Below are positions 7,118 to 34,840 of a stretch of DNA of 64,000 nt, piece by piece (position 1 is the first letter of the stretch; each line of letters starts with the position of its first letter). Position numbers and translations under genes: made by a program. Below the pieces are notes generated by a model. It did no database searches, was not told where the DNA came from, and saw nothing but the letters and a program-made list of their open reading frames with translations. The DNA is taken from NCBI RefSeq assembly GCF_024502345.1, contig NZ_JALDNN010000001.1; one strand, given 5' to 3'. Source of the stretch: Escherichia coli. Its GTDB lineage: Bacteria > Pseudomonadota > Gammaproteobacteria > Enterobacterales > Enterobacteriaceae.

Positions 7118-7204
7118 GCCCGGATGGTGGAATCGGTAGACACAAGGGATTTAAAATCCCTCGGCGTTCGCGCTGTGTGGGTTCAAGTCCCACTCCGGGT
7201 ACCA
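7118..7204 (+). tRNA. leuZ: tRNA-Leu (anticodon UAA), long variable arm; 3' half is the integration site of the element
   Basis: 87 nt ending CCA; anticodon loop gatttTAAaatcc; T-stem carries a compensatory U-A pair relative to the displaced copy at 34590-34645. Confidence 0.9.
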
Positions 7205-7276
7205 TGGGAAACATCAGAATAATCAAAGCAATAAGCAGTGTCGTTAAACCACCTCCGGGTGGTTTTTTTGTGCCTG
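7149..7276 (+). repeat. attL: direct repeat covering the 3' 56 nt of tRNA-Leu plus terminator
   Basis: About 128 bp, roughly 95% identical to 34590-34719. Confidence 0.85.
7246..7269 (+). terminator. Rho-independent terminator after leuZ
   Basis: Hairpin accacctccgggtggt followed by T7. Confidence 0.7.
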
Positions 7277-7445
7277 AAATTCATGTCCTGTGCATATCCT
7301 GTGCTCACGGGGTGCGATGAGCTGCAATCTCCAGCCTGGCAATGACGAATCGAACGTGTCGCCTCCAGCATAGAGAACCAGGCCGCTTTGCCTGTTTTCC
7401 GGTACGCTTCCGGGAAGGGGGGCCTGCTGAGCAAGCTGTAATGCT

Positions 7446-9484: not shown

Positions 9485-9493
9485 ACGTGGAGT

Positions 9494-9751
9494 ATGAGTA
9501 TGCCGTTAAAATGTCCTAAGTGTGGTAGCCGAAATACAGTGACAGAAACTGCCGGAAAGATAGCAGAAGTGACTCGCGATGACCGGTTCCTGACATCGAC
9601 ATCCGGTTATATTAGCCCGGAGCAATTACCAGAATTGCTTAAAGAAATCATCAGGGCGATACAACGTCTCTTTAGATTCCTTGAACAGCGTGAAAGGAAT
9701 AATGCGCCAGTGCTGATCTGCAAGGATTGTGGATATTATGAAAGAATATAG
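9494..9751 (+). CDS. Small zinc-ribbon protein (CxxC...CxxC), function unknown
   Basis: 85 aa with CPKCGS ... CKDCGY; translationally coupled to the integrase gene. Confidence 0.5.
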   Translation: MSMPLKCPKCGSRNTVTETAGKIAEVTRDDRFLTSTSGYISPEQLPELLKEIIRAIQRLFRFLEQRERNNAPVLICKDCGYYERI

Positions 9752-9796
9752 ATGACCACTGAAGGCAATTCCAGATTCTTTAGCCTGTCTATGTAA

Positions 9797-9826
9797 CCCC
9801 GATACTTAAAACGTATCGGGTTTTTT
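9797..9826 (+). terminator. Rho-independent terminator
   Basis: Hairpin cccgatac...gtatcggg followed by T6. Confidence 0.6.
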
Positions 9827-9844
9827 GTTTATGAGGATTATTCA

Positions 9845-11282: not shown

Positions 11283-11583
11283 CCCGTTATGAACAGGAAG
11301 AAAGCGGGCGGCTTTGTAATCTACAGCATGTGGTGTGCATCACAGCATGGAGATGATGTCTCTTTTTCCTGGCTGTTCGCATAAACAAGTGCAGACACGG
11401 GGGATCTCAGATCCCTCGTGATTTTTGCCCCCTATGGTGCATTCTTCTGTAGCAGGGTGATAACGGTTAATCCATTACCCCAACGACAGTATTACACCGG
11501 TAATAAATGTTCATGAATACAGTTAGTTATGTGGGTTTTGAGGTGGGCTATGTCATCGTTGACGATAACTGAAGGTTTTACAG

Positions 11584-11811
11584 ATGTATAAAACTCGCGG
11601 TGAAAGGATCGCAGAAAGGCTGTGCTGGATATTACTTCAACTGTATACCGGTAATACGGTATCGGTTAATGATATATGTCAGCGTTTCGCGGTCAGTCGC
11701 CGAACCGGACAGCGTGATTTGTTGAGAGTTGAAACTGTAACGGAAACTATTTCACCTGGAAGGGTAAGGCTGGCAAATTTGATAAGGGAACGAGTTAGAC
11801 GAAATTTTTAA
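11584..11811 (+). CDS. Small HTH protein resembling the N-terminus of YafY/WYL-type regulators
   Basis: 75 aa; ...NTVSVNDICQRFAVSRRTGQRDL... HTH, parallel to the N-terminus of the 12773-13675 product. Confidence 0.4.
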   Translation: MYKTRGERIAERLCWILLQLYTGNTVSVNDICQRFAVSRRTGQRDLLRVETVTETISPGRVRLANLIRERVRRNF

Positions 11812-12772: not shown

Positions 12773-13675
12773 TTACGGGGCGTTACTTGGCTGGGTGTAA
12801 CGTTTCAGTGCGGATTGTATATCTTCAGCAAGTTGTTGACGGATTGAGGCCGGTTGTATTACTTCGACATCCGGTATCCAGTATTTCATTAAAGGCATTA
12901 TCTGATCTGTGTGTGTTACACGTGATATCACCAGTAAATCGCCAGACCGGGAAGTATGAATTATTTCCTGTCCTGGCAATAGATGACGGTGGGTAAACCA
13001 CGGAGCAACATGTGCGGAAACTGAAATAAGAACTTCGATAAGGTCTTCGCTATACCAGATACCATCTGTCTTTTCTATTTTTTCATTAATTTCGGGGATT
13101 ATCCTGAAAGAGATATTACTCATGCAAACGTCTTTGACAGATGAGATAACAAAGCTTTTTAATGTACTGTCATGGGCGGCAGCGAGATACCACAATCCGT
13201 TGTCATTAACCAGCCTGTATGGCTCAACAGCCCGAAACTCTTTATCTTTGTAATTAAAATTTACTTTCTTCTGTGACAGGATGGCATCGGATAATACATT
13301 CAGAATTGACATGAATGATCCGCAGTTTTCGTATGGACGTTGTTTTATCAGAAACGGGTTGTTTTTCGTGTTACCTAACAAAATACTCAGTAGTCTGTCA
13401 TCCCAGCGAGGGAACAGCCCTTCAATACCCAGGATGCGCGTGAAATGACGTAAATCAGCATTGCTGCGTTGACCGAGAACACCGTCAGACAGGCGATAGC
13501 GACCATTTTGTCGAATCAGATTAAGATAGGACAGGCGCTGAGTAAGATCACGACGGATAGTTTTTTCGCAAACGTTAAATTCCTCAGATAACTCCCGGAC
13601 GGCTAGTGACTCACCATTGTTCAGGCGAGTTAATATCAATCCGAGTCGATATCCAAGTTTATCGTGCTTACCCAT
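12773..13675 (-). CDS. HTH + WYL-domain-type transcriptional regulator (YafY-like)
   Basis: 300 aa; N-terminal DeoR-like HTH ([21 protein letters not shown]), central region consistent with a WYL domain. Confidence 0.5.
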
Positions 13676-14429: not shown

Positions 14430-17030
14430 TCAGACTGGAAGACAGAATGTCGGATATTTACGGGCTATGATATCCATCAGTGACTTCATTCGCGGTGTTA
14501 CAGAACTAAATTTCATTTGGGGTATTTTTGCTCTTACCGCATTTTTTACATCAGTCACCGTTACTGAATAGCCTTCTGACGTCAGCCATTCAGCAACCTC
14601 TTTACAGGAATAACTTTTTTTATCTTTCAGCATCAGCCCCCATTGGCACTGAGTCAGCGCCCGGAGAAATAGTCTGACTAAAATATCATCACTACGTTTG
14701 CTTCCGACTTTTAGTTTCATATCAGAAAACACCGTCCGGCAATAGAGAAAATCACACCAGTCATCCCAGTCAGCCAGGGTCTTCAGTGTATGCGTTTGCC
14801 GCCAGTCGTCGAAAAGGGAGCGCTGCTGCAGAGCCTCTTCCATATTATCCCATGGGCGGGAAAACATCAGTAAATGCCCTTCATTCATGGCGGGCTGTAC
14901 GGGCTGGCGTTTGAAATCGAATTCCAGATTAAGACGGATATCCTGTTCCCGGGATACCAGATCGCTTTCCGACAGCCACATCTCACGCGTTGATATCAAC
15001 GTACTTCGGGATAAAGTCTGACCGGGTAAACGATTAAGGTAAAGATCTACCATATAGTCGTTATAGTCACTGCGTGGAATATCGGCAGGAGGTTTGACGC
15101 CAGCCCTGGCATGAACAACAGGTTTTCCCTGAATAGCTCTATAGGTTAACTGCCCCCGGGTTTTCATGGCGATAAGCTGGCTGACTTCATGCTTACATGT
15201 CAACATTGATGAACCCGGATCAACAATATCGCACAGCGACTGGAAGCGGGAAGACAGTGGACCGCTCATGTTTATCTTGTTAAGTGGGCAATTTGTCAAA
15301 AAGCCATCGGTTGTGACGCTGACAACCGATGAATCAGAAGGCAAAGCATTCATGAGTTCCCCGGCAACGGCGCGGATAAATCCCGTTACATGCGCAGCAA
15401 AGAATGGCTGAGTAACCGATGATGGTGGGAGGGATCTGTTTAATCCACGGGCAGTATCAAAGGCGGTTTTGGCGCGAAGGCCCTGAGCAAGTTTGCCATA
15501 AAGCGAGTTGCCAATTTCTTTCCAGAATTTCTCCTCCAGAGAACCTTTAATATGGCGATTACGGTTCTCACGGACCTGTTGAACAAAGGGAAGAAACACC
15601 GATGTTGATTCGCTGTTATGTGGGGAGGTGTCACAGATCCAGGGGACGATGATCCCATTATGGATCGTCATCTCTGCCCCGAGCGACAGAGCAAGTTCGA
15701 TTTCAGGTGCCGTTGCCCATGATTCGCCACTTAATGGAAAGAATAACCCATATTGATCGGTCCGAACCGGCAGGCTGGGATAGGGAACTGATTCCGGGAA
15801 CCGAAATGTGACAAGCGCAAATCCCATTACATGCCCACAGTAATCGTCCGGATTTTTACTGAGGCGGATGTTCCCGTAATCGGGTGTGAGGATATCTAAT
15901 AGCCCGGTGGTATACGCTCCAGCCAGATCGTAGTCATACCAGTGATCAGACGGTGTAACCCCCATCATAAAACACTCATTGCGTCCGCCGTGGTAACAGT
16001 TGATCGGGAACGTTTCAAACAACTCTCTTGAAGGAACACTGGCGGGGTTTTTAATCGTCCGGAATGCCTGTTTCTCCGTGAGCCAGAGTTCACGGGTTTT
16101 AATGTGTGTCCCAAGGCAGACTTCAGGAGACATATTGTTTTCTTTAAGTGTTTTGGTGAACCGTGAAACTGCCATCGCCCCGATGGTGGCGGGGACACGA
16201 TCAATCATCAGCTCCCGGGCGCAAAAATTGCGAACCTGTAAAGCATAACGAACCGCAATCTCGGCATCCCGCAGAGCATAGGCTTCAAACCCTGCTCTGT
16301 CGCCCAGAAGATATTCACGCATATTGGTTATGGAATAAGGTGCAGGAATGGTGAGTTTGGGAAGACCCAGTAATTCACCACATTCAGCCAGACCCATACC
16401 CCCGGGAGTGATAAGCAGTGTATCGATGAAAGCTACGTTACTGCAACGCGGAGGGGAAGTTCGTTTGTCAAACATTATCTGTTCAGTCTTTACGCGACGT
16501 TCCTGCTGTTCATCAAAATCGATACCGTAACGATTTTTGAAGCTGCTGACAGTACCGCGTATTCCTTTCAGAAGAATTTTGTAGTCTGACCAGAAATTGG
16601 CAAAGGAGGCGATATCCGCACGAATGAAATGCGCATATATATTAATAATACCGGGCCATTTTGTAATCACACCCGTTTCAAGAAGCGGTGTAATCGTTTG
16701 ACAGAGAAATTCCTTAAAAGACAGCCGGGATTTTTTCTGTGAGTCAGGTGGATAGATAATGTTCGATATACCTGTATTATCGGGTAAGATAACATAACTC
16801 TGATATGACAGAATATCATTCTGTCGTGTTTCAGGGTTGAAAACATATTCGGTATCAAAACCGATATGGAGTGTCAGGTCACTTGAAATAACAGATACTT
16901 TTTTTGATGCAGGTGGTATCACAGGATAATCATCAAGCGTTTTAGGTCTTTTACGATTGAGCGCTGGCTCTGAAGTCACGGACTGATACCCCGAGGCGGC
17001 AGCGAGGATGTCCTGCAAATTATTGCTCAT
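14430..17030 (-). CDS. Family-B DNA polymerase with 3'-5' exonuclease domain (piPolB-like); alternative start at 17093
   Basis: Exo I FDTE, Exo III YALRD, motif A DYDLAGAYTT, motif B KEIGNSLYGK, motif C VTTDGF, downstream KTRG, all in canonical order; RBS ggag before ATG 17030. Confidence 0.85.
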   Translation of the reverse strand: MSNNLQDILAAASGYQSVTSEPALNRKRPKTLDDYPVIPPASKKVSVISSDLTLHIGFDTEYVFNPETRQNDILSYQSYVILPDNTGISNIIYPPDSQKKSRLSFKEFLCQTITPLLETGVITKWPGIINIYAHFIRADIASFANFWSDYKILLKGIRGTVSSFKNRYGIDFDEQQERRVKTEQIMFDKRTSPPRCSNVAFIDTLLITPGGMGLAECGELLGLPKLTIPAPYSITNMREYLLGDRAGFEAYALRDAEIAVRYALQVRNFCARELMIDRVPATIGAMAVSRFTKTLKENNMSPEVCLGTHIKTRELWLTEKQAFRTIKNPASVPSRELFETFPINCYHGGRNECFMMGVTPSDHWYDYDLAGAYTTGLLDILTPDYGNIRLSKNPDDYCGHVMGFALVTFRFPESVPYPSLPVRTDQYGLFFPLSGESWATAPEIELALSLGAEMTIHNGIIVPWICDTSPHNSESTSVFLPFVQQVRENRNRHIKGSLEEKFWKEIGNSLYGKLAQGLRAKTAFDTARGLNRSLPPSSVTQPFFAAHVTGFIRAVAGELMNALPSDSSVVSVTTDGFLTNCPLNKINMSGPLSSRFQSLCDIVDPGSSMLTCKHEVSQLIAMKTRGQLTYRAIQGKPVVHARAGVKPPADIPRSDYNDYMVDLYLNRLPGQTLSRSTLISTREMWLSESDLVSREQDIRLNLEFDFKRQPVQPAMNEGHLLMFSRPWDNMEEALQQRSLFDDWRQTHTLKTLADWDDWCDFLYCRTVFSDMKLKVGSKRSDDILVRLFLRALTQCQWGLMLKDKKSYSCKEVAEWLTSEGYSVTVTDVKNAVRAKIPQMKFSSVTPRMKSLMDIIARKYPTFCLPV

Positions 17031-17076
17031 AGTTAACTCCGAAAAAATGCCGGGAGCTGTGTCCCGGCATAAAGAA

Positions 17077-17715
17077 TCAGGATTTAATAACATTTACTAC
17101 AGATTTGAAAATATCGGTTTTGTGTGATTCATCATCTACATGGATAAAGGAAACGAGTTTCCTGCCTGCTTTAATCAGGATACCGCGTTGCGTCTTTTCC
17201 ACAGACGGGGTAACGTGTGCAGATAACAGACAATGTTCATGTAAATGAAGAAACTTTTTTGAGGCGTAGCCGCCATGTAATCGGGCTTGAATGTCAAGAT
17301 ACATATCATCAAGAGAACCGGGTTCTCCTGATTCACTCAATACCGGATAACCCTTCTTATCAAAGAGGTTAAGGATAGATTTACTATCATGTTCGAACAG
17401 GGTAACACCGTAAATGTATTTCATTCGAAAGGTGAGGGAATCGGTGGTGTAGACCTCCTCCTGACGATTGAAATTTTTGAGACGCCTGGCTAATTCATTA
17501 AAAACAGCACGAGCAGTAGCCGTGTCCTGCAGGGTGTAGGTATAAAGTACGAAGCCATCTGTGCCGATGAGCTTTACTAAGTTGTCCATAATCGTGATAG
17601 CGAGAACTAATGCAAAGGACAGATATTTTTCATCGTTGTCTACAGCTGTGTTTGCTGCTTCAGGAAGAATGTTCAGTGCATTATTAGCATTATTTGCTGT
17701 GTTCTTAGTAACCAT
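17077..17715 (-). CDS. Hypothetical protein between the excisionase and PolB genes
   Basis: 212-aa ORF overlapping the xis stop by 11 nt; no recognisable motif. Confidence 0.5.
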   Translation of the reverse strand: MVTKNTANNANNALNILPEAANTAVDNDEKYLSFALVLAITIMDNLVKLIGTDGFVLYTYTLQDTATARAVFNELARRLKNFNRQEEVYTTDSLTFRMKYIYGVTLFEHDSKSILNLFDKKGYPVLSESGEPGSLDDMYLDIQARLHGGYASKKFLHLHEHCLLSAHVTPSVEKTQRGILIKAGRKLVSFIHVDDESHKTDIFKSVVNVIKS

Positions 17716-17905
17716 TTATATCACCTTTAAGTTTGTTTTGACGATGTGCATTTTCCCACTCAACAATATCATCAAGAGAGAATCGTATAGCCCGCCCAAT
17801 TCTGATGAAGGGCGGGAGTTTTCCTGGGTTGCGCGATATATCTGACGCAACCGTGGATGCGGAAAGATTAAATCTTTCTGCAAACTGCTTAATGGTTAAA
17901 TACAT
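17705..17905 (-). CDS. AlpA/Xis-family excisionase-like DNA-binding protein
   Basis: 66 aa; LTIKQFAERFNLSASTV ... winged-helix pattern typical of AlpA/Xis. Confidence 0.65.
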   Translation of the reverse strand: MYLTIKQFAERFNLSASTVASDISRNPGKLPPFIRIGRAIRFSLDDIVEWENAHRQNKLKGDINGY

Positions 17906-18055
17906 AAACCTCCGGTTTTAGAGAAGAAGAAACCACGCGGATTTAATATCAATCCACATTCTTTGATGACTTAATGCAGGGCCCTGCAGAAGCATGCAAT
18001 GACAATACCGTCCTTAAACGAGTGTTGCATCAATCACGAATCACAGATCATAGGT

Positions 18056-19186
18056 TCATTTTTTCGTGTCATAACTTTCTATGACCTGAGAAACCACTGC
18101 GTGCGATGTCGCTGCATTGTGAAAAGCGTAGCGACGGGTCGCCGTGAGTGAATGGTGATTTAGCAGATGGGAAGCGATTGCAATATCCCCGGTCGCCTGT
18201 AGTACCCGGGTGGCAAAGGTACGGCGCAGGTCATGCATCCGCAGGTTATCAATGTTGGCATCCCGACAAATACGGGCAAAGGTTGCACGCGGATATGCCA
18301 GAGGGCGGGCATTGTCGGTTAGTTGTGGAAAAATGTAAGTTTTGCTGAGCATCAGGTCTTGCTGGCACTGGACAACTGCAATGGCTGGAGGTGCAAGTGG
18401 GCAGGTGAAAGGGTGTCCGGACTTTGTATCAGGCAGTATGAGTTGATGCATATCCGGGTGCCAGTACTCCCATTTCAGGGTACATACCTCACCAATACGC
18501 ATCCCCGTATAAAGAGCAAGCAATATAGAATCAGCTGCCGGTGTTTGCAGCGCTGTTGCCGCGTCAATAAAGCGCGGGATTTCTGTCGCTGATAGTGTGC
18601 GATAGCGAATGTTATTTTCTTTCAGATAGCGGACATGTGACATCGGGGAATGTGTGATCCATCCAGCACGTACTGCCAGAGAGCATATTTTGGACAATAT
18701 TGCGAGGATACGGTTTACTGTTGACGGACGTAATTTTTCCCGTAAGCCAGCAGCATATTGTTCTAGTTCCCCTGCCGTGATGTCGCGAAGTTGCCGCTTG
18801 CCCCAGAACGGGCGAACGTAGAGGTTGAGTTTTGACAACTCTGACTGAGGACTCTTTTTATACAACTGCAAATCCGGTAGCCACAGGTCATTGATGGCCT
18901 GTTCCACAGTGAATCGACGGGACTGAACCGCAAGACGATTTTTATCAGCAAGCAGTTTCATCACATGCTGACGGGCATCCTCAACGCAGAGCTGAGGGAA
19001 CTGACCCAGGGTTTCATATATACGCTGATTGTTTATAGTGGCACGAAAGGCCAGCGTGATCCGATTGGGATACACCAGAGCACGCAGGTTTTGGCAGTGA
19101 ATATCACGGTATTCCTGACAACCCGTGAGGGGATGTGGAAGTTGGTGAAGTGATTTGTTGCTGAAACGCAGATCCAGAATAGGCAT
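18056..19186 (-). CDS. Second tyrosine recombinase (XerC/D-like integrase)
   Basis: 376 aa; RIGEV (R), HDLRRTFAT (HxxR), TRRYAFH (Y). Confidence 0.8.
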   Translation of the reverse strand: MPILDLRFSNKSLHQLPHPLTGCQEYRDIHCQNLRALVYPNRITLAFRATINNQRIYETLGQFPQLCVEDARQHVMKLLADKNRLAVQSRRFTVEQAINDLWLPDLQLYKKSPQSELSKLNLYVRPFWGKRQLRDITAGELEQYAAGLREKLRPSTVNRILAILSKICSLAVRAGWITHSPMSHVRYLKENNIRYRTLSATEIPRFIDAATALQTPAADSILLALYTGMRIGEVCTLKWEYWHPDMHQLILPDTKSGHPFTCPLAPPAIAVVQCQQDLMLSKTYIFPQLTDNARPLAYPRATFARICRDANIDNLRMHDLRRTFATRVLQATGDIAIASHLLNHHSLTATRRYAFHNAATSHAVVSQVIESYDTKK

Positions 19187-19329
19187 CGTATTTCTCCTGT
19201 AAATGACACTGGAAAAATACGATGTGAGGTTATAGTCTGCCAGTTACAGCTTTCACAGTTCATCAGGTGAAAAAACGCAGATTCGGATATAATGGCAACA
19301 CAATTCCATGTCGCCATTATATTAAGAAA

Positions 19330-20460
19330 CTACAGTTTCATGATCTTGTTCGCTATTTTTTCGAAGTAAACCTCATTCTTAAGAAGAGTGATATTGTTTG
19401 TTTGAACACCCAGACCACTGGAGGTTGACTGGAAGTTGAGTGAACCACTTATCACTGTGGACTTTCCTGATAAAAATGAAATCAACTCCTTGGAAGATGG
19501 TGCCCACTCAGGGTTTAAGAGTAATGCAATATAGATATATGTCTTACGAAGCAATTGTTCTATATCTTTTTTATGCCCTGTAGTGTTTTGCTTACCTTTA
19601 ATGCAAATAGATTTGATTATGAACTCATCAGGGCTGGTTAAAGGCGTTTTAAACTCACTCAGTGATCCATCGTTATGAATGACTTCATAAGGCAGCATAG
19701 ATAAAATGATCAATGCAATCATTTTAGGATGATAAAGGTAGTTATCACGAATGATTTTTCCTGCCTTCATTGTATTGAGCGTTGTTTGAATAAATACAAA
19801 AAGATATTCAGAGCAAAAGTAACAAAACACAAGCCAGGATAGGTCAATGGATGGAATGTTAATATCCTTAGGTAGTTTGTTTAGCCAGTATTCAGACTTC
19901 AAAAAGGTCCTGATTTCAACAGTATATTCATGCATTTTTGCGCTGAAATCAAGCATTGCTACTTGACCTGATTGTTCCGTAACTGTGTGGTCTATAAATG
20001 TTAGTGTATTGCACATTTTATCCAGCGTGTTTTGAAAACAAGAAAGGAGTTCGGCATTATTATTACCATTAACCGCAGATGAAAGTTCAGTTTTAATAAA
20101 TGCATCCAGTAGCATACAGATTTCTTTCGGAATGACATTTTTACGGGATTGCTGTGAATAGAAATGTACTGCCAGTAAATTAAAGGCAGTGCACTCCTTT
20201 TTTAACCATTGTTCGAGCACTGGGACGTGCTGAAAAAAATTGATATGCTTAGCAGTAGATGCTGATGGAGATAGTACATGAAGAATATCTACAGCAGGCT
20301 TCATTTGCAATATTTGATCGGATTCGGTAGTCGTCATTAGTTCCAGTAATTGCTGTTCAGAAAATAGTTTAGACAGGTGATCAATGTCTTTTTGGTATTG
20401 ATTAAGTTTTGTTAAATTCCCCGGTATACGGGTTACATTGTTTTTCATTTTCTCGAACAT
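19330..20460 (-). CDS. Hypothetical protein, AT-rich, no recognisable domain
   Basis: 376-aa ORF in a low-GC block; Lys/Asn/Ile-rich. Confidence 0.5.
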   Translation of the reverse strand: MFEKMKNNVTRIPGNLTKLNQYQKDIDHLSKLFSEQQLLELMTTTESDQILQMKPAVDILHVLSPSASTAKHINFFQHVPVLEQWLKKECTAFNLLAVHFYSQQSRKNVIPKEICMLLDAFIKTELSSAVNGNNNAELLSCFQNTLDKMCNTLTFIDHTVTEQSGQVAMLDFSAKMHEYTVEIRTFLKSEYWLNKLPKDINIPSIDLSWLVFCYFCSEYLFVFIQTTLNTMKAGKIIRDNYLYHPKMIALIILSMLPYEVIHNDGSLSEFKTPLTSPDEFIIKSICIKGKQNTTGHKKDIEQLLRKTYIYIALLLNPEWAPSSKELISFLSGKSTVISGSLNFQSTSSGLGVQTNNITLLKNEVYFEKIANKIMKL

Positions 20461-20966
20461 AATTTTATCCTCGTTTGAATTATTACACTGATTTAAAAAG
20501 TAGCATGTCGTGTTAGCGAGGTAATCCTAAAACGTGAATGGCAGCAGGGGCAAGCTTGAATCTGCGTAAGGATATGGCTTGAATTTAATGGTGTAATCAG
20601 TGAGTTAGAGGCTTATAGCCATTTAAATACAATAAGTTATGATAATATATGGCGGGTGTAAATCGGTTAGTTTTTATGGTTAAAATATGAGCATTGTGAG
20701 ATTTGAGATATGATGGTTTTTAAATTACATACAAGTTACCCCTGATGATCAGTATTAATACCAGAATGATACATGCGAGCAGCACCCAATCCTGTACTAT
20801 TTATGATGGCTATACAAGGCTGAAACTTTGAGTCGTATGTTGCCAGGAGGATTAATGTCCACAAGGCCCAGATAGAATGATTTCTCAGATATTAAAGTTG
20901 AAACTTATTAACTATGTGAGAGGCTGATATTTATTCAGTCTCTCATTTGTTTTTATCGTTTTAAAG

Positions 20967-22202
20967 TTAAAAGGAAATAAATAATGCCTTCCGCCGATGA
21001 ATCAGTGTACTGATTTCTCGAAAATCAGCCTCAATACTACCAACATCACCAAAGACTTCACCACTAATCTCTCTTCGATTTTTCATGAAATTGGTGCTTA
21101 ATAAGCTTTCTTTTTTTAGTGTCACTAATTTTGGTTTTATATCGTTATAGAAATGCTTACGGCTTACCCTGATGCTATGAATCGAGTAGTAAACTGTTTT
21201 ATACATCAAAAATATAAGTAACTGGCCGAGAAGATATTCTTTTTCAATGTATTTATATTGAGAGGATTTTTCGCGTTTCGCCAGGTAGAAAACATGAGGT
21301 GCGATGATGGTGGGGATGAAATCCAGTGCTGGAGAGGTTTTGGTTTTTTCTGTTTCTCTTCCGGATTGAAGATGTTGAAGTACAGAGTATACAATGCTTA
21401 AAATTATGGCGTTACTTATATTATTAATTGCAGTTGGGTAAATATGCAGATTGCTTATCAATTCTGAAAGGCAAAGTAAAACACCAGTGATGTTGGGTTT
21501 TCTGCCGGAGATTGTGGTGCTGTTGAAAATGTGACGATTCTTACGACTTATATTGACAAGTTTATGAGTGCAGAACTCTATATGTTCGACGATTTTATCT
21601 TGACTATTTTTAATGTATTTTGAAATGTTAGTGATCCGGCCATTCAACGTTAGTTCATCAAGCAATATATCATTTTTAATATTGCGAATTTCATCGCAAT
21701 GTTCACATTGAGAAACTATCTCATGTAATACATAACTCGACGTATTGCGGGGTGACGCTGATATGTAATCTAAAATAGAAGGCTCGATTTTGATTTTTTG
21801 TTTGTATTTTTTAATGCACTGTTTGATTGTTTTTTGTAGAGTATTTGAGATGTGTTTTTTATATTCTTTTAGAAAATCTTGCTCTAAAAAGAGTGAGGAG
21901 AAGATCAACTGCTGGCGAGATAATTTAATCTCAGGCTTGATCAATTTAATCCGAAAAACTCTTCCCTCCAACTCATAGCTGAACATGGAAGATAAGTCAT
22001 AGTGGGGTGATAAATGTTCGAGTAACGACATTCGTGTATTCATTAGCCGCTTGAATTTATGGTCAGCATACATAAGTGTTTTTTTTATTTGCTCATCATA
22101 AAGTGGGCCGATAGCGCAGTTGGCAATACTCATTCTATCCGGAGACCTCCAGTCAGCAGGGGAATCACATTGACGGTCATCATTACTATCAAAGGGCATC
22201 AA
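20967..22202 (-). CDS. Hypothetical protein, AT-rich, no recognisable domain
   Basis: 411-aa ORF in a low-GC block; no Walker or nuclease motifs seen. Confidence 0.5.
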   Translation of the reverse strand: MMPFDSNDDRQCDSPADWRSPDRMSIANCAIGPLYDEQIKKTLMYADHKFKRLMNTRMSLLEHLSPHYDLSSMFSYELEGRVFRIKLIKPEIKLSRQQLIFSSLFLEQDFLKEYKKHISNTLQKTIKQCIKKYKQKIKIEPSILDYISASPRNTSSYVLHEIVSQCEHCDEIRNIKNDILLDELTLNGRITNISKYIKNSQDKIVEHIEFCTHKLVNISRKNRHIFNSTTISGRKPNITGVLLCLSELISNLHIYPTAINNISNAIILSIVYSVLQHLQSGRETEKTKTSPALDFIPTIIAPHVFYLAKREKSSQYKYIEKEYLLGQLLIFLMYKTVYYSIHSIRVSRKHFYNDIKPKLVTLKKESLLSTNFMKNRREISGEVFGDVGSIEADFREISTLIHRRKALFISF

Positions 22203-22505
22203 CGTTGCCGATTATGGATCATGTCAGCTCCACACACCAGAACGGGTGATATATGGATCATCATTACCCCAACGGCAGTTTTACACCATGGCTAATATGG
22301 ATGCTATCTTACTAAGATAATTGGTTTTTAGCGAGTGACGAGCCCGGTTGTGTCAGTCTGTCTCATGTCGATATTACGGGGATGATGCAAACCTGAATGC
22401 TGCGATATTGGCGTGTCAGGGGAGGCATCTTACGGTATCATTTACCGCAATTTTTAAGATGCAAAGCCCTGCATCGCTAGCTTTTTCTTCAGACCAGGAT
22501 GATTC

Positions 22506-24029
22506 ATGAACGACAAAATCAGTCAGGACACGATCAACAAAGCCCTGTGGGCCGCGTGTGATACGTTCCGTGGCACCATCAGTGCTGATACCTATAAAGA
22601 CTTTATCCTTACCATGCTATTCCTTAAGTACATTTCGGATGTCTGGCAGGATCACTACGACGAATATAAAGTGCAATATGGTGATGAGCCGGAACTGATT
22701 GAAGCGATGATGGCGAACGAGCGCTTCGTGTTGCCGAAAAGCGCCAGTTTCTATGCGTTGTACGAGCGACGTCATGAGCCGGGCAACGGTGAGCGTATCG
22801 ATCAGGCGCTGCATGCGATTGAAGAAGCCAACGGCACCAAACTGAAAGATGCCGGGAAAAGTGTCTTCCAGGATATTTCGTTTAACACTGACCGTCTGGG
22901 CGAAGAAAAACAGAAGAACACCATCCTGCGTCAGTTGCTGGAAGACTTTGCCGGTGAAGATCTTAACCTGAAGCCAAGCCGTGTCGGTACGCTGGACGTT
23001 ATCGGTAATGCTTACGAATATCTGATCAAAAACTTTGCTGCCAGCGGTGGGCAGAAAGCCGGGGAATTCTATACCCCACCGGAAGTTTCGGATCTCATCG
23101 CTGAACTGCTTGATCCTCAACCCGGTGATACAATCTGCGACCCGGCCTGTGGTTCCGGTTCGTTGCTAATGAAGTGCGGGCGTAAAATTGTCTCAGGACA
23201 TGATAGCCGCAACTATGCGTTGTTCGGTCAGGAAGCGATTGGCTCCACGTGGTCGCTGGCGAAAATGAACATGTTCCTGCACGGCGAAGATAACCACAAA
23301 ATCGAGTGGGGCGATACCATTCGTAACCCGAAGTTGTTGGATAAAAACGGCGACCTGATGCTGTTTGATATCGTGACCGCAAACCCACCGTTCAGCCTGG
23401 ATAAGTGGGGCCATGACGAGGCCGAGAATGATAAGTTTGGGCGTTTCCGTCGCGGTGTACCGCCGAAGACTAAAGGGGATTACGCCTTTATCTCGCATAT
23501 GATCGAAACCCTGAAACCGGGAACGGGTCGTATGGGCGTAGTGGTGCCGCACGGTGTGCTGTTCCGTGGCTCCAGCGAAGGCAAAATTCGTCAGAAGCTG
23601 ATTGATGAAAACCTACTCGATGCGGTGATTGGCCTGCCTGAAAAACTGTTCTACGGTACGGGTATTCCTGCTGCAATTCTGATTTTTAAAAAGCAGAAAG
23701 TGGATGACAAGGTGCTGTTTATCGACGCCAGCCGTGAATTTAAGGCAGGTAAAAACCAGAACCAGCTCAGCGCAGAAAACATCGAGAAAATCGTCAAGAC
23801 CTACCGTGATGGCGATAGCGTCGAGAAATATGCCTACCTTGCCAGCCTGAAGGAGATTCAGGACAACGATTACAACCTCAATATTCCGCGCTATGTCGAT
23901 ACCTTTGAAGAAGAAGAAGATATCGATTTACTTGCCGTTCGTGCTGAGCGGGAGGAATTGAAAGCGGAACTGGCGAAATTGGAAACGCAGATGGCGGGTT
24001 ATCTGGAGGAGCTGGGTTATGGTGCCTAA
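22506..24029 (+). CDS. hsdM: Type I restriction-modification N6-adenine DNA methyltransferase subunit
   Basis: 507 aa; SAM-binding DPACGSGSLL and catalytic NPPF (VTANPPFSL). Confidence 0.9.
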   Translation: MNDKISQDTINKALWAACDTFRGTISADTYKDFILTMLFLKYISDVWQDHYDEYKVQYGDEPELIEAMMANERFVLPKSASFYALYERRHEPGNGERIDQALHAIEEANGTKLKDAGKSVFQDISFNTDRLGEEKQKNTILRQLLEDFAGEDLNLKPSRVGTLDVIGNAYEYLIKNFAASGGQKAGEFYTPPEVSDLIAELLDPQPGDTICDPACGSGSLLMKCGRKIVSGHDSRNYALFGQEAIGSTWSLAKMNMFLHGEDNHKIEWGDTIRNPKLLDKNGDLMLFDIVTANPPFSLDKWGHDEAENDKFGRFRRGVPPKTKGDYAFISHMIETLKPGTGRMGVVVPHGVLFRGSSEGKIRQKLIDENLLDAVIGLPEKLFYGTGIPAAILIFKKQKVDDKVLFIDASREFKAGKNQNQLSAENIEKIVKTYRDGDSVEKYAYLASLKEIQDNDYNLNIPRYVDTFEEEEDIDLLAVRAEREELKAELAKLETQMAGYLEELGYGA

Positions 24030-25266
24030 GGGGTGGAAACGAGTACCGATTAAGGATGTGTGCGAGTCTATAATCGATTGCGTAAATAAAACAGCTCCAG
24101 TTGTTGATTATGAAACTCCCTTTAAGATGATTCGTACCACGAATGTACGTAATGGAAGGGTTAATACTGAAGACGTCAGATATGTGACTGAAGACACTTA
24201 CCTGCAATGGGTTCGACGCGGAAAACCGCAAGTAGGTGATATCATCTTTACACGTGAAGCACCTGTAGGAGAAGCAGGTGTCCTGCAAGATGCTGAAGGT
24301 ATTTTCCTCGGGCAAAGAACGATGATGTATCGAGCTGATACCTGCCTTTCAGATAACTATTTCTTGTTCTACTCGTTATCAAGTCCCTTCTGCCAGAAAC
24401 AAATTGAAGATTTTAGCAATGGCGGTACTGTAGCTCATATGAGAGTTCCAGATTGCGGTGAGATATTGATCAATCTACCGCCTTTCCTCGAACAAAAGAA
24501 AATCGCCCAAATCCTGTCAACCTGGGATAAGGCGATTTCGGTGACGGAAAAGCTTCTCACCAACAGCCAGCAGCAGAAAAAAGCCCTGATGCAGCAATTG
24601 CTTACTGGGAAGAAACGCTTGCTGGATGAGAATGGGACAAGGTTTTCTGAAACTTGGAAATTATATGCCTTATCGAAATTATTTCAGAGAGTTACGACTA
24701 AAAACAATGGAAAAAGCAACAATGTTGTAACCATTTCTGGACAACATGGTTTGATTAAACAGGAAGACTTTTTCAAGAAAACAGTCGCATCAGATACCCT
24801 TGATGGTTATTTCTTATTAAAAAAAGGGCAGTTTGCTTACAATAAAAGTTACTCTAATGGTTATCCGATGGGTGCAATAAAAAGATTAAATCGATATCCA
24901 GAGGGAGTAGTAACAACTCTGTATATATGTTTTGAACTTACTACACCCAAAAAATCATGTGGTGACTATTGGGAGCATTATTTTGAGTCAGGGCTTTTGA
25001 ATAACAGTTTGTCTCAAATTGCTCATGAAGGTGGACGGGCTCATGGCTTGCTAAATGTAAAACCTTCGGACTTCTTTTCATTAAAAGTTGCGGTTCCTGG
25101 CTTTGAAGAGCAACAAAAAATCGCATTAGTTCTGTCCGCTGCCGACACCGAAATCTCCACACTGGAGAAAAAACTCGCCTGCCTGAAAGACGAGAAGAAA
25201 GCCTTGATGCAGCAACTGCTGACCGGGAAACGTCGGGTGAAAGTGGATGAGGCGGTTGCCGTATGA
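24019..25266 (+). CDS. hsdS: Type I restriction-modification specificity subunit
   Basis: 415 aa; two target-recognition halves each followed by the conserved repeat KKALMQQLLTGK(K/R)R; overlaps hsdM stop. Confidence 0.88.
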   Translation: MVPKGWKRVPIKDVCESIIDCVNKTAPVVDYETPFKMIRTTNVRNGRVNTEDVRYVTEDTYLQWVRRGKPQVGDIIFTREAPVGEAGVLQDAEGIFLGQRTMMYRADTCLSDNYFLFYSLSSPFCQKQIEDFSNGGTVAHMRVPDCGEILINLPPFLEQKKIAQILSTWDKAISVTEKLLTNSQQQKKALMQQLLTGKKRLLDENGTRFSETWKLYALSKLFQRVTTKNNGKSNNVVTISGQHGLIKQEDFFKKTVASDTLDGYFLLKKGQFAYNKSYSNGYPMGAIKRLNRYPEGVVTTLYICFELTTPKKSCGDYWEHYFESGLLNNSLSQIAHEGGRAHGLLNVKPSDFFSLKVAVPGFEEQQKIALVLSAADTEISTLEKKLACLKDEKKALMQQLLTGKRRVKVDEAVAV

Positions 25267-25946
25267 AACTGACGAAAAGCGGTCCACTGACTGACCGGGA
25301 AATCGACTGGCTGGAAGAAATATTAATGAAGTATGGAATGGATGATTCTGTACTCTGTTTCTCTGAGCTGGATGGATTGCTGACGGCGATTTTATCAGGT
25401 CCAAATATGGTTTCACCCAATATCTGGCTGAGTGCTATTTGGGGAGGAGGCGATTATCATCCGAAATGGTCATCTGAGAGAGAGATGGAGCGTTTTGTCA
25501 GTCTGTGTTTTCAGCATATGAACGATATCGCTGGTTGCCTTTATGACGCCCCTGAACTGTTTGAGCCGATTTTCAATGAGCGTGAGGTAAAGGGGGAAAA
25601 ATATACCATTGTGGAAGAGTGGTGTTTTGGTTATATGAAAGGAAAGTCACTGGATGACTGGTCTGGTCTTCCCGGTGAGTTACGGCCTTCTCTGGAAGTG
25701 ATCGCTCTTCATGGCGTGGAGAAGAATTTTCCTGTACTTGAGAAAATGACCGGAGAGCAGTTTGAGAAAAGTATTTCCCTTATTCAGCCTGCTGCACTGG
25801 CACTTTATCAGTACTGGTTGTCAGTGAGAATGTCAGAGGCATCATCCCGGCCTGTTCCAGTGAAGGGGGCAGAAAACATGCCCGGGCGAAATGACCCGTG
25901 TCCGTGTGGCAGCGGTAAAAAATTTAAGAAGTGCTGTCTGCATTGA
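25263..25946 (+). CDS. YecA-like (UPF0149) protein with C-terminal SEC-C metal-binding motif, embedded between hsdS and hsdR
   Basis: 227 aa; C-terminus [20 protein letters not shown]; alignable along its length with chromosomal YecA at 34841-35506. Confidence 0.75.
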   Translation: MKLTKSGPLTDREIDWLEEILMKYGMDDSVLCFSELDGLLTAILSGPNMVSPNIWLSAIWGGGDYHPKWSSEREMERFVSLCFQHMNDIAGCLYDAPELFEPIFNEREVKGEKYTIVEEWCFGYMKGKSLDDWSGLPGELRPSLEVIALHGVEKNFPVLEKMTGEQFEKSISLIQPAALALYQYWLSVRMSEASSRPVPVKGAENMPGRNDPCPCGSGKKFKKCCLH

Positions 25947-25995
25947 TGAATCTTCATGTGACCAGTAGCGAGTAGCGCCAGAAAGAAAAGGATTA

Positions 25996-28900
25996 ATGAT
26001 GAACCAGACGTACACGCCAAAATTCCAGGAAGAATACAGCGCCAAAATTCCGGCACTGACGTTACTGACCAGCCTCGGCTGGACGTTTTTATCTCCGAAA
26101 CAGATTATGGATTACCGGGGCTATAAACAGGATGAGGTGGTGCTGCGTCCGGTTCTGCGTGAAGAGCTGTCGAAGCGTTCCTTTATGGCGGGTGGCAAAA
26201 CCTGCCAGTTATCGGAAAAAGCACTGGATAACCTGATATCACAGGTCTGTTCTCCGGCGCTGAATGAAGGGCTGCTCAAAGCCAATGAACGGATGTATAA
26301 CCATCTGCTCTACGGTATCGCCGTCACGGAGTTTGTCGATGGCAAGAAGGTCAACCCCACCATTGCGCTGATCGACTGGGAACATCCGGAAAATAACCAG
26401 TTCCACTTTACTGAAGAATTTACGGTATTGCGGTCAGGTGGTGTTGAAACCCGGAGGCCAGATATTGTCTGCTTTGTTAATGGTATCCCGCTGGCTGTTA
26501 TTGAAGCGAAAAGCCCGGCTGGTCATGGCAAGAAAGGGCCAACCATTGACGAGGGGATATCCCAGAGTATCCGCAACCAGTTCAACGATGAAATCCCGCA
26601 GCTGTTTGTCTACAGCCAGTTATTACTTTCGATTAACGGTCATGACGGGCGCTACGGTACATGCCATACGCCAATGAAATTCTGGGCGGCATGGCGCGAA
26701 GAAGATATTACCGATGCGCAGATGTATGCTCTGCGCAACCATCCTTTATCGACTGAACAAATTCATGCGTTGTTTGATCATCGTCCATCAGCCGATCTCA
26801 ACTGGTACCAACAGTTAATCGCCGCCGGTGAACTGGCTGTCAGTGGACAGGACAAACTGCTCATCAGCCTGCTTTCGCCGGAACGTCTGCTGGAGATGAC
26901 CCGCTTCTTCACTCTGTTTGATAAAAAGACCGGGAAAATTGTCGCCCGCTATCAGCAGGTGTTCGGTATTAAAAGACTGCTGGAGCGCATCAGTACCCGC
27001 AGACCCGATGGGGGCAGGGAAGGTGGTGTTATCTGGCATACCACCGGCTCTGGCAAATCGTACACCATGGTGTTCCTCAGCAAGGCGCTGATTCTTCATG
27101 ACAGCCTGAAGCGGTGTCGTATCGTGGTGGTGACGGACCGTATCGATCTTGAAGAACAGCTCAGCAGTACCTTTGCATCCGGCGGCGAGTTGGCCGGGAA
27201 AAAAGACAAAGCCAATGCAATGGCGACATCCGGGCAGATGCTGGCGAAACAGATTGGCTCCGGTAAAGAACGCATCATTTTCACCCTAATCCAGAAATTT
27301 AATTCAGCGACAAAACTTCCTGAATGCGTCAATACCAGCCCCGATATCATCGTTCTGGTTGATGAAGGACACCGTAGCCAGGGTGGTGAGAACCATGTGC
27401 GAATGAAACTGGCACTGCCGAACGCCGCCTTTGTGGCATTTACTGGTACGCCATTGCTAAAAGAAGATAAGACCACCAATAAATTCGGACCGATTGTCCA
27501 CGCTTATACCATGCAGCGAGCGGTAGAAGATAAAGCCGTTACACCTTTGCTGTATGAAGAACGTATTCCCGACCTTGAGGTTAACGATCGGGCAATAGAT
27601 GCCTGGTTTGATCGTATTACCGATGGGTTAAGCGAAGCGCAAAAAGCCGACCTGAAGCGTAAATATGCCCGTAAAGGTGAGGTTTATAGTGCAGATGATC
27701 GCATCCGTCTGATCGCACTCGATATCGCCACGCACTTCTCGAAGAATATTGATGAGGGACTGAAAGGCCAGCTTGCCTGCGACAGCAAGATTTCCGCCAT
27801 CAAATATAAAAAGTATCTTGATGAAGCCGGGTTGTTTGAGTCAGCTGTAGTTATCAGCCCGCCGGATACCCGGGAAGGGAATACCGAAGTGGATGAAAGC
27901 AAACTGCCGGAAGTGACGAAATGGTGGAAGGATAATGTCGGCACGCAGGATGAGTCTGTGTATACCCGTAATGTCATCAGTCGTTTCGATACCGATGAGA
28001 AGCTCAAATTGCTGATAGTCGTTGATAAACTGCTCACCGGGTTTGATGAGCCGAAGAATACCGTGCTGTATATCGACAAGCCGCTTAAGTCCCACAACCT
28101 TATCCAGGCGATTGCGCGGGTGAACCGACTGCATCCACTAAAAAAGTTCGGTCTGCTGATTGATTATCGCGGTATTCTGGCTGAGCTGGACACGACTATC
28201 GGCAAATATCAGGACCTCGCCTCCCGAACTCAGGGCGGATACGATATCAAAGATATTGACGGGCTGTACAGCGCCATGAGCTCTGAATACAAGCGCCTGC
28301 CGCATCTGTATAACCAGCTGTGGGCCATATTTGCCGGTGTTAAAAACAAAAATGATACTGAGCAGTTACGTGCGGTACTGGTGCCTAAAATGGAAGAACG
28401 TGACGGAGAGATGGTCGATATCCATCAGAAAACCCGTGATGATTTCTTCGAGGCGTTAACGGCCTTTGCCGGATGCCTGAAAGTGGCACTGCAGTCCGCT
28501 ACCTTCTTCACCGACAAGAGCTTTACGGAACAAGACCGAAATCTCTATAAAGAAACCGTAAAACAGATGTCCAGCCTGCGCCAGTGGGCGATGCAGGTAA
28601 GTGGAGAGCAGGTCAATTATGACGACTACGCTGAGCAGGTGAAAAAACTGCTGGATAAGCATGTCACCGGCGTTGAAGTTCGTGAACCGGATGGCGTGTA
28701 TGAAGTCGGTAAAATGGGCAAGAGCGAAAAGCCCGAAGAGTGGGACAACAATAAAACCCGCAATGAAACCGACATCATTAAAACCCGTGTGACAAAGATG
28801 ATTGAGCAGGAATTGCGTGATGACCCGTATGCTCAGGAGGCATTTTCAAAACTCCTGCGTATGGCTATCGAAGAGGCTGAAAAACTGTTTGACCATCCGC

Positions 28901-29283
28901 TGAAACAGTACCTTTTGTTCCGTGAATTTGAAGAACAGGTTGAAGCCCGTAAGCTCAGCGATATCCCGGATGCACTGGCGGTAAACAAGCATGCTCAGGC
29001 GTATTACGGTGTATTTAAAAAAGAGCTACCTGAGGTTTTTGCGGTAAACGACGTTCAGGTGCAGGATAAGTGGACGAAGCTGGCTTTTGAAGTGGACAAC
29101 ATTATCGTCAAAGCGGTGGCAGAAAACTCCCTGAACCCCCAGGACATTGAGAAAGTCGTTAAGACAAGTCTGCTACCACTGCTGTTTACGGCCTGCCGGG
29201 AAATTGGTGCCGGAATGAATCAGGTTAACCGTATTGTTGAAACCATCATCCAGATACTGCGCGTTGGTTTGATGAAATCATGA
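25996..29283 (+). CDS. hsdR: Type I restriction enzyme R subunit (nuclease/helicase)
   Basis: 1095 aa; helicase motif I TTGSGKS, motif II DEGHRSQ, N-terminal nuclease region. Confidence 0.9.
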   Translation: MMNQTYTPKFQEEYSAKIPALTLLTSLGWTFLSPKQIMDYRGYKQDEVVLRPVLREELSKRSFMAGGKTCQLSEKALDNLISQVCSPALNEGLLKANERMYNHLLYGIAVTEFVDGKKVNPTIALIDWEHPENNQFHFTEEFTVLRSGGVETRRPDIVCFVNGIPLAVIEAKSPAGHGKKGPTIDEGISQSIRNQFNDEIPQLFVYSQLLLSINGHDGRYGTCHTPMKFWAAWREEDITDAQMYALRNHPLSTEQIHALFDHRPSADLNWYQQLIAAGELAVSGQDKLLISLLSPERLLEMTRFFTLFDKKTGKIVARYQQVFGIKRLLERISTRRPDGGREGGVIWHTTGSGKSYTMVFLSKALILHDSLKRCRIVVVTDRIDLEEQLSSTFASGGELAGKKDKANAMATSGQMLAKQIGSGKERIIFTLIQKFNSATKLPECVNTSPDIIVLVDEGHRSQGGENHVRMKLALPNAAFVAFTGTPLLKEDKTTNKFGPIVHAYTMQRAVEDKAVTPLLYEERIPDLEVNDRAIDAWFDRITDGLSEAQKADLKRKYARKGEVYSADDRIRLIALDIATHFSKNIDEGLKGQLACDSKISAIKYKKYLDEAGLFESAVVISPPDTREGNTEVDESKLPEVTKWWKDNVGTQDESVYTRNVISRFDTDEKLKLLIVVDKLLTGFDEPKNTVLYIDKPLKSHNLIQAIARVNRLHPLKKFGLLIDYRGILAELDTTIGKYQDLASRTQGGYDIKDIDGLYSAMSSEYKRLPHLYNQLWAIFAGVKNKNDTEQLRAVLVPKMEERDGEMVDIHQKTRDDFFEALTAFAGCLKVALQSATFFTDKSFTEQDRNLYKETVKQMSSLRQWAMQVSGEQVNYDDYAEQVKKLLDKHVTGVEVREPDGVYEVGKMGKSEKPEEWDNNKTRNETDIIKTRVTKMIEQELRDDPYAQEAFSKLLRMAIEEAEKLFDHPLKQYLLFREFEEQVEARKLSDIPDALAVNKHAQAYYGVFKKELPEVFAVNDVQVQDKWTKLAFEVDNIIVKAVAENSLNPQDIEKVVKTSLLPLLFTACREIGAGMNQVNRIVETIIQILRVGLMKS

Positions 29284-30035: not shown

Positions 30036-30093
30036 CTTATCAATATGAGTTCTTAAGAGTTTGGTCAGTCTCGTTAATGCAGGGAGTATAATA

Positions 30094-31932: not shown

Positions 31933-31990
31933 CAAAGTTGGGGTGTTAATTAATGTGTAATGGCATCATGATTTTTAAAAGGAGGTTGAA

Positions 31991-33118: not shown

Positions 33119-33222
33119 AGTAATATGACTGAGTGATGACGATCTTTTTTAAATTGTGGATTATTAGGCTGGTAATTGAAGCGCCGAATAGACAGATATT
33201 AGAATAAAAGGAGAATATTCAA

Positions 33223-34719: not shown

Positions 34720-34840
34720 CAACTTGTCGTTACACCCTCCTTAATTTTTAATCACCGGCAAAGCCACTCAAAAAGTATCTCTGATACGGACCGGCATGTA
34801 AGATAGGTGCTGGCGAGTTGAGATCCACAAGGAAAAACGT

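Follow-up and report, generated by a model that had tools for sequence, protein, structure and literature searches.

The locus examined here is an AT-rich block of Escherichia coli DNA (RefSeq assembly GCF_024502345.1, contig NZ_JALDNN010000001.1) that lies between the integrase gene int2 and the restriction-modification gene hsdM of a pipolin. The whole stretch of 64,000 nucleotides that was analysed is called the window, and all coordinates refer to it unless another locus is named. An earlier reading made from the letters alone (the sequence-only reading) had marked positions 19330-22202 as a low-GC block with two large co-oriented open reading frames (ORFs) of 376 and 411 aa, and both were found as described, on the minus strand. 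ORF-A (19330-20460; RefSeq WP_001734868, 'hypothetical protein') encodes 376 aa from an ATG start. ORF-B (WP_001734869, also a hypothetical protein) is open over 20967-22202, giving 411 aa from a TTG codon. The low GC of the block was likewise confirmed (0.35 against about 0.50 in the flanks), with values of 0.358 for A, 0.348 for the spacer between the genes and 0.355 for B; int2 and hsdM, by comparison, have a GC of 0.50, and the window as a whole 0.472. The AT-rich unit is real, and its limits are slightly wider than first drawn, at about 19275-22245. As detailed below, this unit is a sharply bounded variable slot at the junction of the core and the cargo of the element, and it heads a string of genes consisting of A, IntP2, Xis, p212 and piPolB.

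RefSeq places the start of B at 22199. In the alignment every B homologue begins with MSI(A/T)N, which maps to the ATG at 22133-22131, and a GGAGG sequence lies upstream of this codon at 22149-22145. On these grounds the true start is probably the ATG at 22133-22131, which gives a protein of 388 aa (20967-22133, minus strand), and the RefSeq start probably lies 22 codons upstream of the true one. When GC is 35%, stops make up about 7% of random codons, which puts the likelihood of 376 codons staying open at about 1e-12. From this estimate, together with conservation across genera and ratios of nonsynonymous to synonymous substitution (dN/dS) of 0.11-0.27, we conclude that the ORFs did not arise by chance. 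Pairwise dN/dS was 0.15-0.27 for A and 0.11-0.23 for B, similar to the values for int2 (0.15-0.17) and piPolB (0.18-0.23), and full-length ORFs are preserved in at least 7 genera and 6 allele classes. A and B are under purifying selection, which for A was seen within allele classes. Synonymous divergence (dS) from the Citrobacter locus was higher in A and B (0.23-0.27) than in int2 and piPolB (0.06-0.10).

The borders of the slot were set by loss of homology. Comparison by blastn with the E. coli pipolin L019 (CP081192) revealed 99.1% DNA identity over 8.9 kb of core (window 19274-10333) and 92-96% identity on the hsdM/hsdR side (24037-22246 at 92%, plus the hsdR region), with no detectable DNA homology between 22246 and 19274. 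In this interval L019 carries a single 380-aa A allele, 43% identical to that of the window, whereas the window carries 2,972 bp comprising B, the spacer and an A allele of the class called A1. Similar borders, at 22264 and 19265, were obtained against loci of lineage III. The left border falls just inside a 27-nt motif on the hsdM side, and the right border about 56-65 nt past the stop codon of A, in the leader of the integrase gene. The replaceable cassette (19275-22245, minus strand) therefore consists of B, the spacer, A, and a short leader and trailer. These results show that A alleles are swapped as cassettes with fixed borders between near-identical backbones. Among complete E. coli genomes, the B+A1 cassette was found in about 233-250 and the L019-type cassette in 22.

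The divergence of A stands out against that of its neighbours. Within lineage III, identity is 92-97% for int2, 90-97% for piPolB and 99% for the WYL regulator, compared with 40-46% or 73-75% for A, which by this measure varies more than any other backbone gene. At least six deep allele classes of A were distinguished, with 33-48% pairwise identity, each encoding an all-alpha protein of about 375-391 aa; the classes are ancient. All the alleles are AT-rich (GC 0.34-0.39, against 0.49-0.51 for the adjacent int2), those of Serratia included. When six allele representatives were aligned, residues 121-180 were 22-29% identical, whereas residues 21-40, 241-260 and 301-340 were 60-75% identical. The A protein thus has a hypervariable centre (about residues 121-180) between conserved N- and C-terminal parts. 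One A allele class of E. coli (contigs L023-L025; L023 positions 8334-9535) carries, in several independent assemblies, a frameshift that divides the gene into ORFs of 301 and 94 aa.

We examined the content of the slot in about 30 loci where it could be read, a modest sample drawn from all sampled sets. An A-family gene was present in all but four, in which the insertion sequence IS1 has truncated or replaced the content. In E. coli MB30 (L010, positions 9001-9843), B, the cargo and nearly all of A are gone through an IS1 insertion or deletion, and just the last 131 nt of A are left beside int2. On a Klebsiella IncFIB plasmid (L017), IS1 truncates A to 97 aa, with the restriction-modification genes adjoining. 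In the metagenome contigs L041 and L046, IS1 lies about 70 nt past the motif and is followed by plasmid genes. Apart from this IS1 damage, the slot was never empty and never held an unrelated system in these loci. No match to A or B was found in phages, and the matches on plasmids were confined to IS1-truncated N-termini of A, carried along with the Type I restriction-modification (R-M) genes. An origin of the genes in phages or plasmids was rejected on this basis. With no phage copies and only an IS1-truncated fragment on plasmids, A and B behave as backbone genes and not as exchanged cargo.

The sequence-only reading had proposed that the two genes form a two-gene defence or toxin system, and we therefore give the co-occurrence of A and B in full. 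The order and orientation B then A are kept in E. coli, Citrobacter koseri, C. amalonaticus, Edwardsiella tarda and Salmonella, with B and A 57-69% identical in the two most distant of these. Of the complete E. coli genomes, 233 have A1 in full, and every one of them carries the whole B+A block. A full-length match to B was present in 248 complete E. coli genomes, 15 more than had a full-length match to A. In many other lineages A occurs without B, namely in Serratia (L002), Enterobacter hormaechei (L006), Buttiauxella (L007, L015 and L016), Intestinirhabdus (L013), an Enterobacter metagenome-assembled genome (L014), other E. coli pipolins (L019-L025) and nine metagenome loci. In the numbered loci the lone A gene lies directly upstream of int2 in the same orientation, at a gap of about 150 bp, and A-family genes stand alone before the integrase in most pipolin lineages.

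B can also occur without A. E. coli and Enterobacter have an island at tRNA-Phe (L008 and L018) with a homologue 46% identical to B, 552 bp upstream of a different tyrosine recombinase gene, which is followed by a DUF927 replication gene. The E. coli example (strain AREA_C483, NZ_CP123310, positions 815733-849233) is a sister island that lacks both piPolB and A, and it has an IntSXT-like integrase, a DUF2787 gene, a DeoR-like gene and Type I R-M genes. Its string consists of the B homologue, the tyrosine recombinase, DUF927 and a 139-aa ORF, with DUF927 in the place of piPolB. Among the sampled loci, B was found with alleles of the A1 clade only and never with other A classes. B is thus an add-on tied to one clade of A, and it can hold the same position alone in the sister island.

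Because A occurs without B in many lineages and a B homologue occurs without A, the two are not an obligate gene pair, and the proposal of an obligate two-gene system was not borne out. The expected co-occurrence is strict within the A1 clade (233/233), but each family was also found alone. The first reading is corrected in that selection acts on the slot and the A gene as its unit and not on a B+A pair. Frequent disruption had been named as a sign against that proposal, and truncated variants are indeed fairly common, mainly of B. A C-terminally truncated B of 354 aa accounts for 1082 database members compared with 2417 full-length ones (clusters P0025, P0028 and P0029). It lacks the invariant EISxLI..R..LF.SF tail, and frameshifted forms of B exist as well.

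Searches for relatives of A and B outside their own families were negative, in keeping with the view that the ORFs belong to no recognisable family. Nothing significant was found in Pfam (run on single sequences plus all alignment members), NCBIfam, PADLOC (0 families) or PHROGs, and sequence-profile searches of the PDB gave no match for either protein. Homologues of both are restricted to Enterobacterales. A profile of A run against 5.8 billion sequences retrieved Enterobacterales A alleles only, and a profile of B run against 1.84 billion representatives retrieved 8 matches, all from its own family, of which 2 were near full length and 6 were fragments. The AlphaFold2 (AF2) model of A consists entirely of helices (mean predicted local distance difference test score, pLDDT, 73.5; predicted template modelling score, pTM, 0.70). 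No relative of this fold was found in the PDB, AFDB50 or BFVD, and AFDB50 returned only the family itself. The model of B was unusable (pLDDT 38.8), and no fold search was made for it; B is predicted to be helical and is not detectably related to A. The remote-homology check that had been suggested has thus been run, with the fold search limited to A, and it yielded no relatives beyond the two Enterobacterales families. A literature search returned no mention of WP_001734868 or WP_001734869.

Motif inspection was equally unproductive. The alignments of A and B contain no conserved Rx4-6H (HEPN), Walker/P-loop or PD-(D/E)xK nuclease pattern, which confirms what had been noted by eye, and no toxin, antitoxin or effector motif was found in either protein. 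By a crude hydropathy test (maximal Kyte-Doolittle mean over 19 residues of 1.51 for A and 1.43 for B, threshold about 1.6), neither has a transmembrane segment. With hydropathy low and conserved motifs absent, we rejected the membrane-protein and the HEPN or nuclease readings. A match of B to AbiJ_NTD4 (PF18863) reached E = 0.03, below threshold, and spans residues 112-226 when B is numbered as 410 aa, or 113-227 when it is numbered as 411 aa; it appeared in just 1 of 7 family members, and for this reason it was set down to chance. A match to TagK was also at chance level. Paralogy of A and B was not significant (BLASTP E = 0.6; hhalign probability 0.9%), and the sole feature common to the two is a short motif, G-[KR]-x(1,2)-N-x-T-G.

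The 506-bp spacer between B and A (20461-20966, minus strand) is AT-rich as had been stated (GC 0.348), but its unusual length is specific to one lineage. In Edwardsiella and Salmonella it measures about 303 bp and lacks the first 190 nt or so. The last 110 nt or so form the leader of A and are conserved across lineages I and II. A terminator-like hairpin of 12 pairs lies at 20916-20946 (minus strand), just past the stop codon of B. Within 20469-20521 (minus strand), CCUCG at 20521-20517 could pair with CGAGG at 20473-20469, which is the Shine-Dalgarno sequence of A. In an RNAalifold analysis of 5 sequences, 5 pairs were kept in all, one of them varying among G-C, A-U and G-U. This pairing is a weak hint that A may be subject to translational control. 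The suggestion that the spacer might hold a small RNA or a promoter found no support, since it gave no Rfam match, its folding z-score of 0.55 was not unusual, and promoter-like sites were no more frequent than in shuffled sequence. A small RNA or structured element in the spacer was therefore rejected.

The element that carries the slot is an E. coli pipolin. This identity follows from the repeats at tRNA-Leu, the piPolB gene and an architecture that agrees with the literature (a Leu-tRNA target, with IntP2 and then an excisionase near piPolB). The left attachment (att) repeat (7149-7279, plus strand) overlaps the 3' end of tRNA-Leu(taa) (7118-7204), and the right one (34590-34722, plus strand) is a direct repeat 95% identical to it. 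The repeats measure 131-133 nt and delimit an element of about 27.5 kb that starts inside tRNA-Leu(taa). The same DNA is present in hundreds of E. coli chromosomes, beside pgsA and the tRNA-Gly, tRNA-Cys and tRNA-Leu genes. According to the accessible text of two pipolin papers, all E. coli pipolins lie at a Leu-tRNA gene and are flanked by att repeats, with IntP2 and then the excisionase near piPolB, the core near the integration site and the defence cargo distal to it (PMC7385651, PMC11551731).

Read along the minus strand, the genes run B, A, int2, xis, p212 and piPolB, and hsdM diverges from B. The int2 gene (18056-19186) lies 143 bp downstream of A and encodes an IntP2-type tyrosine recombinase; its homologues match the Pfam family Phage_integrase in homologous loci, and the IntP2 class was assigned after PMC11551731. 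It is followed in the co-oriented string by a gene for an Xis-like HTH_17 protein (17705-17905), the 212-aa orphan p212 (17077-17715) and piPolB (14430-17093; 887 aa, RefSeq 'DNA polymerase'), all on the minus strand. Homologues of piPolB match PF03175 (DNA_pol_B_2) weakly, and its catalytic motifs were read by eye. This core is a mosaic: the xis (81%), p212 (47%) and A (69%) genes of the window are closest to the Edwardsiella/Salmonella lineage, and int2 (78%) and piPolB (72%) to lineage III (14430-19186 compared with L002, L005-L007 and L009).

The remaining genes of the element include an IntSXT-type integrase, DUF2787, DUF726, a WYL regulator (12773-13675), Type I R-M genes and further nuclease-like cargo. 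The sequence-only reading had placed the block in a defence-rich island, and it was right in this: the island is the pipolin with its Type I R-M genes and cargo. The R-M cargo occupies 22506-29283, with hsdM, hsdS, a yecA-like gene and hsdR. HsdM and HsdR are 96-99% identical at the protein level across pipolin lineages whose core genes are about 70% identical (L005-L007, L013-L017 and L019), and the same R-M genes occur, with the motif and the IS1-truncated N-terminus of A, on IncFIB plasmids of Klebsiella quasipneumoniae and on IS1- or plasmid-like metagenome contigs (L017, L041 and L046). From this high identity and the presence of the R-M genes on plasmids beside the IS1-truncated A, we infer a recent exchange of the R-M cargo, partly via IS1. 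In some R-M copies the yecA-like gene and hsdR are separated by a gene of about 620 aa annotated 'cold shock domain-containing protein' (L001 26668-28530, L007 4441-6303 and L017 2436-4298); it is absent from the window (25946-25996). The interval 30061-34404, ahead of the right att repeat, holds three further large cargo ORFs (623, 375 and 393 aa), which, judged solely by their length and position, correspond to the GmrSD-like, PDDEXK_4 and Mrr_cat/NA-iREase1 genes of L006 and L019.

The motif at the left border of the slot, TGGTGTAAAACTGCCGTTGGGGTAATG, lies at 22262-22288 on the minus strand, 16 nt outside the border and 128 nt upstream of the ATG of B. A second copy with 3 mismatches lies 10.8 kb away in the same orientation (11473-11499, minus strand), 85 nt upstream of a 75-aa DeoR-like helix-turn-helix (HTH) ORF (11584-11811, plus strand) and inverted relative to it. 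Two copies in the window compare with 0 expected by chance. Together they bracket the WYL, DUF726, piPolB, p212, xis, int2, A and B genes. All pipolin loci conserve a 24-nt version of it in which two positions are degenerate, GGTGTAAnACTGnCGTTGGGGTAA, despite diverging flanks. The 3' half of the motif, TGgGGTAAT, resembles an extended -10 element, and the motif is a candidate promoter or operator, with a transcription start predicted near 22255. About 110 nt downstream of the copy on the DUF2787 side (11370-11480) are more conserved than the neighbouring genes and contain two hairpins, GGGGTAAT...TTATCACCC and GGGATCtgaGATCCC. Judging from such features, the motif and the conserved stretch could be an operator or promoter, a small RNA, a replication origin or a recombination site. 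That the two copies are att sites of a nested IntP2 element is at most a speculative idea: comparable inner repeats are lacking in L018, and no form with an empty site was seen.

A scan of public metagenomes and IMG/VR with the motif core retrieved 35 contigs, each with a copy of either the DUF2787/DeoR-side or the hsdM-side type. Where contigs with the hsdM-side copy held enough sequence, 7 had B followed by A1 and 9 had A alone, the latter including the sixth allele class; the two exceptions were the IS1-bearing L041 and L046. As a hotspot, the slot could be mined from short contigs by means of the 27-nt motif and the int2 leader.

How might these genes act? We tentatively favour the view, though we hold it at somewhat less than an even chance, that A is a non-enzymatic specificity or sensor protein at the interface of conflict among host, phage or element, and that by analogy B is one too. 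The fixed position, the deep alleles, the hypervariable centre on a conserved scaffold, the lack of a catalytic signature, the AT-richness and the absence from phages and plasmids all point this way. Consistent with it, neither protein has an enzyme, HTH, transmembrane or defence-family signature. In such a scheme the variable centre of A would recognise a partner and the conserved C-terminal module would carry out the action. A would work as a single polypeptide and not as half of a toxin/antitoxin or two-gene effector system. It would act either on the adjacent excision and replication module, following the logic of the Stl repressor of staphylococcal pathogenicity islands (SaPIs) and of phage immunity, or as an exclusion factor. 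Control of the adjacent excision and replication module is the framing towards which we lean slightly, at somewhat less than an even chance, and a stand-alone exclusion or abortive-infection role is unlikely although plausible.

In a bolder version, which we think rather improbable, the A family and independently the B family would be a new all-alpha class of allele-specific sensors. They would couple recognition of phages or rival elements to the IntP2/Xis/piPolB excision-replication module, or to abortive infection, and the allele classes, six or more in number, would correspond to specificity groups that balancing selection maintains. A is an obvious candidate for the phage or rival interface of the element, since it always heads the integrase-excisionase-polymerase string and yet is the most variable backbone gene, swapped as a cassette. 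Pipolins are widespread defence islands, and we know of no regulator or inducing signal described for them. If the proposal holds true, A/B sensors would be the first known trigger or switch of pipolin mobilisation.

Several points weigh against the proposal of a specificity or sensor protein. The sensor role is drawn from position and evolutionary pattern only. No DNA-binding domain was detected in A, which makes a classical immunity repressor unlikely. The alleles of A show no visible co-variation with WYL, int2 or piPolB, so that no partner inside the element could be identified. A promoter-like site overlaps the start of int2 and a hairpin follows B, and co-transcription of A and int2 is putative. 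Truncated variants of A and B are fairly common, which implies that the genes are dispensable to the host. Finally, the strict link between B and A1 would also fit a genuine two-protein unit within the A1 clade.

A possible but unlikely alternative is that A and B are independent single-gene anti-phage cargo of the abortive-infection (Abi) type, fixed beside the integrase and expressed from their own promoters. The setting, a defence island with Type I R-M genes and more cargo downstream, would suit such genes, as would their AT-rich, 'moron'-like character and their residence in a bounded variable cassette beside an integrase, like those of the P4 psu-int and Vibrio P2-like cI-int hotspots. 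The terminator-like hairpin of B and the separate leader of A would allow each gene to stand by itself, and the deep allele classes suggest an arms race. However, PADLOC gave no match and no effector domain was detected. Unlike the known hotspots, the slot in this sample held no unrelated system in any locus and was empty only through IS1, and the genes were found neither on phages nor intact on plasmids, whereas the defence cargo of pipolins is actively exchanged according to the accessible text of PMC11551731. Even as a plain single-gene defence factor, A would add a family with an orphan fold to the catalogue of defence genes, together with a new hotspot.

That B and A make up one obligate two-gene defence or toxin system we consider improbable. 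The conserved order and orientation, still recognisable at 57-69% identity, the presence of B in every one of the 233 E. coli genomes with full A1, and the absence of B beside other A classes, which links it to A1 specifically, speak for such a unit. Most allele classes of A nevertheless occur without B, the B family is found without A, a gap of 303-506 bp separates the two genes and B is followed by a hairpin, full-length B exceeds A by 15 E. coli genomes (248 against 233), and neither protein has toxin or antitoxin features that we could find.

Very doubtful is the notion that A is a DNA-binding immunity repressor of the pipolin like P2 C or 186 cI, with the allele classes as heteroimmune groups. 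A lies directly upstream of an IntP2-type integrase gene and is co-oriented with it, and in P2 the C and int genes are in one operon. The deep classes with sharp borders resemble phage imm regions, and the AF2 model of A has a helix-helix-hairpin segment at its N-terminus. On the other hand, no HTH or winged HTH was detected by Pfam or NCBIfam in 15 members, the putative recognition helix, as read from the alignment, is acidic, 376 aa is large for such a repressor, and the 27-nt motif shows no variation linked to the allele of A. Lastly, the possibility that the block is decaying, H-NS-silenced foreign DNA with functionless ORFs is remote: low GC and the existence of truncated variants and of IS1 insertions and deletions would agree with it, but dN/dS is 0.11-0.27, full-length ORFs persist in at least 7 genera and 6 allele classes, and open frames of this kind would arise at 35% GC with a probability of about 1e-12.

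Comparison with known systems places the slot as follows. PF18863 of AbiJ (NTD4) is the sole Pfam family that weakly matches B, and B lacks a HEPN domain or motif and shows no significant match to PF18863 across its family. The window has all the defining parts of published pipolins (Redrejo-Rodriguez 2017; Flament-Simon 2020; Mateo-Caceres and Redrejo-Rodriguez 2024), sharing with them piPolB, att repeats at tRNA-Leu, IntSXT and IntP2, an excisionase, DUF2787, WYL and distal defence cargo. The accessible text of the pipolin papers mentions 'orphan proteins' and does not describe the A and B families, the allelic slot or the 27-nt motif. Thus the element itself is already known, and what this analysis adds to that text is the two families, the slot and the motif.

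SaPI Stl and phage imm regions, compared here from general knowledge, share with A the position next to an integrase gene, the deep divergence between otherwise similar elements and a diversity of the specificity type. Stl, C and cI repressors carry an HTH and are arranged divergently to the lytic operon, whereas in A no HTH is detectable, and its gene stands first in a string of co-oriented genes.

A further parallel is with the integrase-adjacent variable cassettes that are a known home of conflict genes, the P4-like psu-int and Vibrio P2-like cI-int hotspots, where 11 of 16 tested cassettes were anti-phage (Rousset et al., 10.1101/2021.01.21.427644). Like them, the slot is a variable AT-rich cassette of about 1.2-3 kb with conserved flanks beside a tyrosine integrase gene, and it has their sharp conserved borders (22246 and 19274, in a backbone of 92-99% identity) and their adjacency to int. 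Those hotspots hold many unrelated systems, known defence systems included, whereas the slot holds homologous A alleles with or without B only. Since the sharp borders and the adjacency to int are shared and unrelated or known defence cassettes are absent, we conclude that the slot is a variant of the integrase-adjacent hotspot and not a member of that class.

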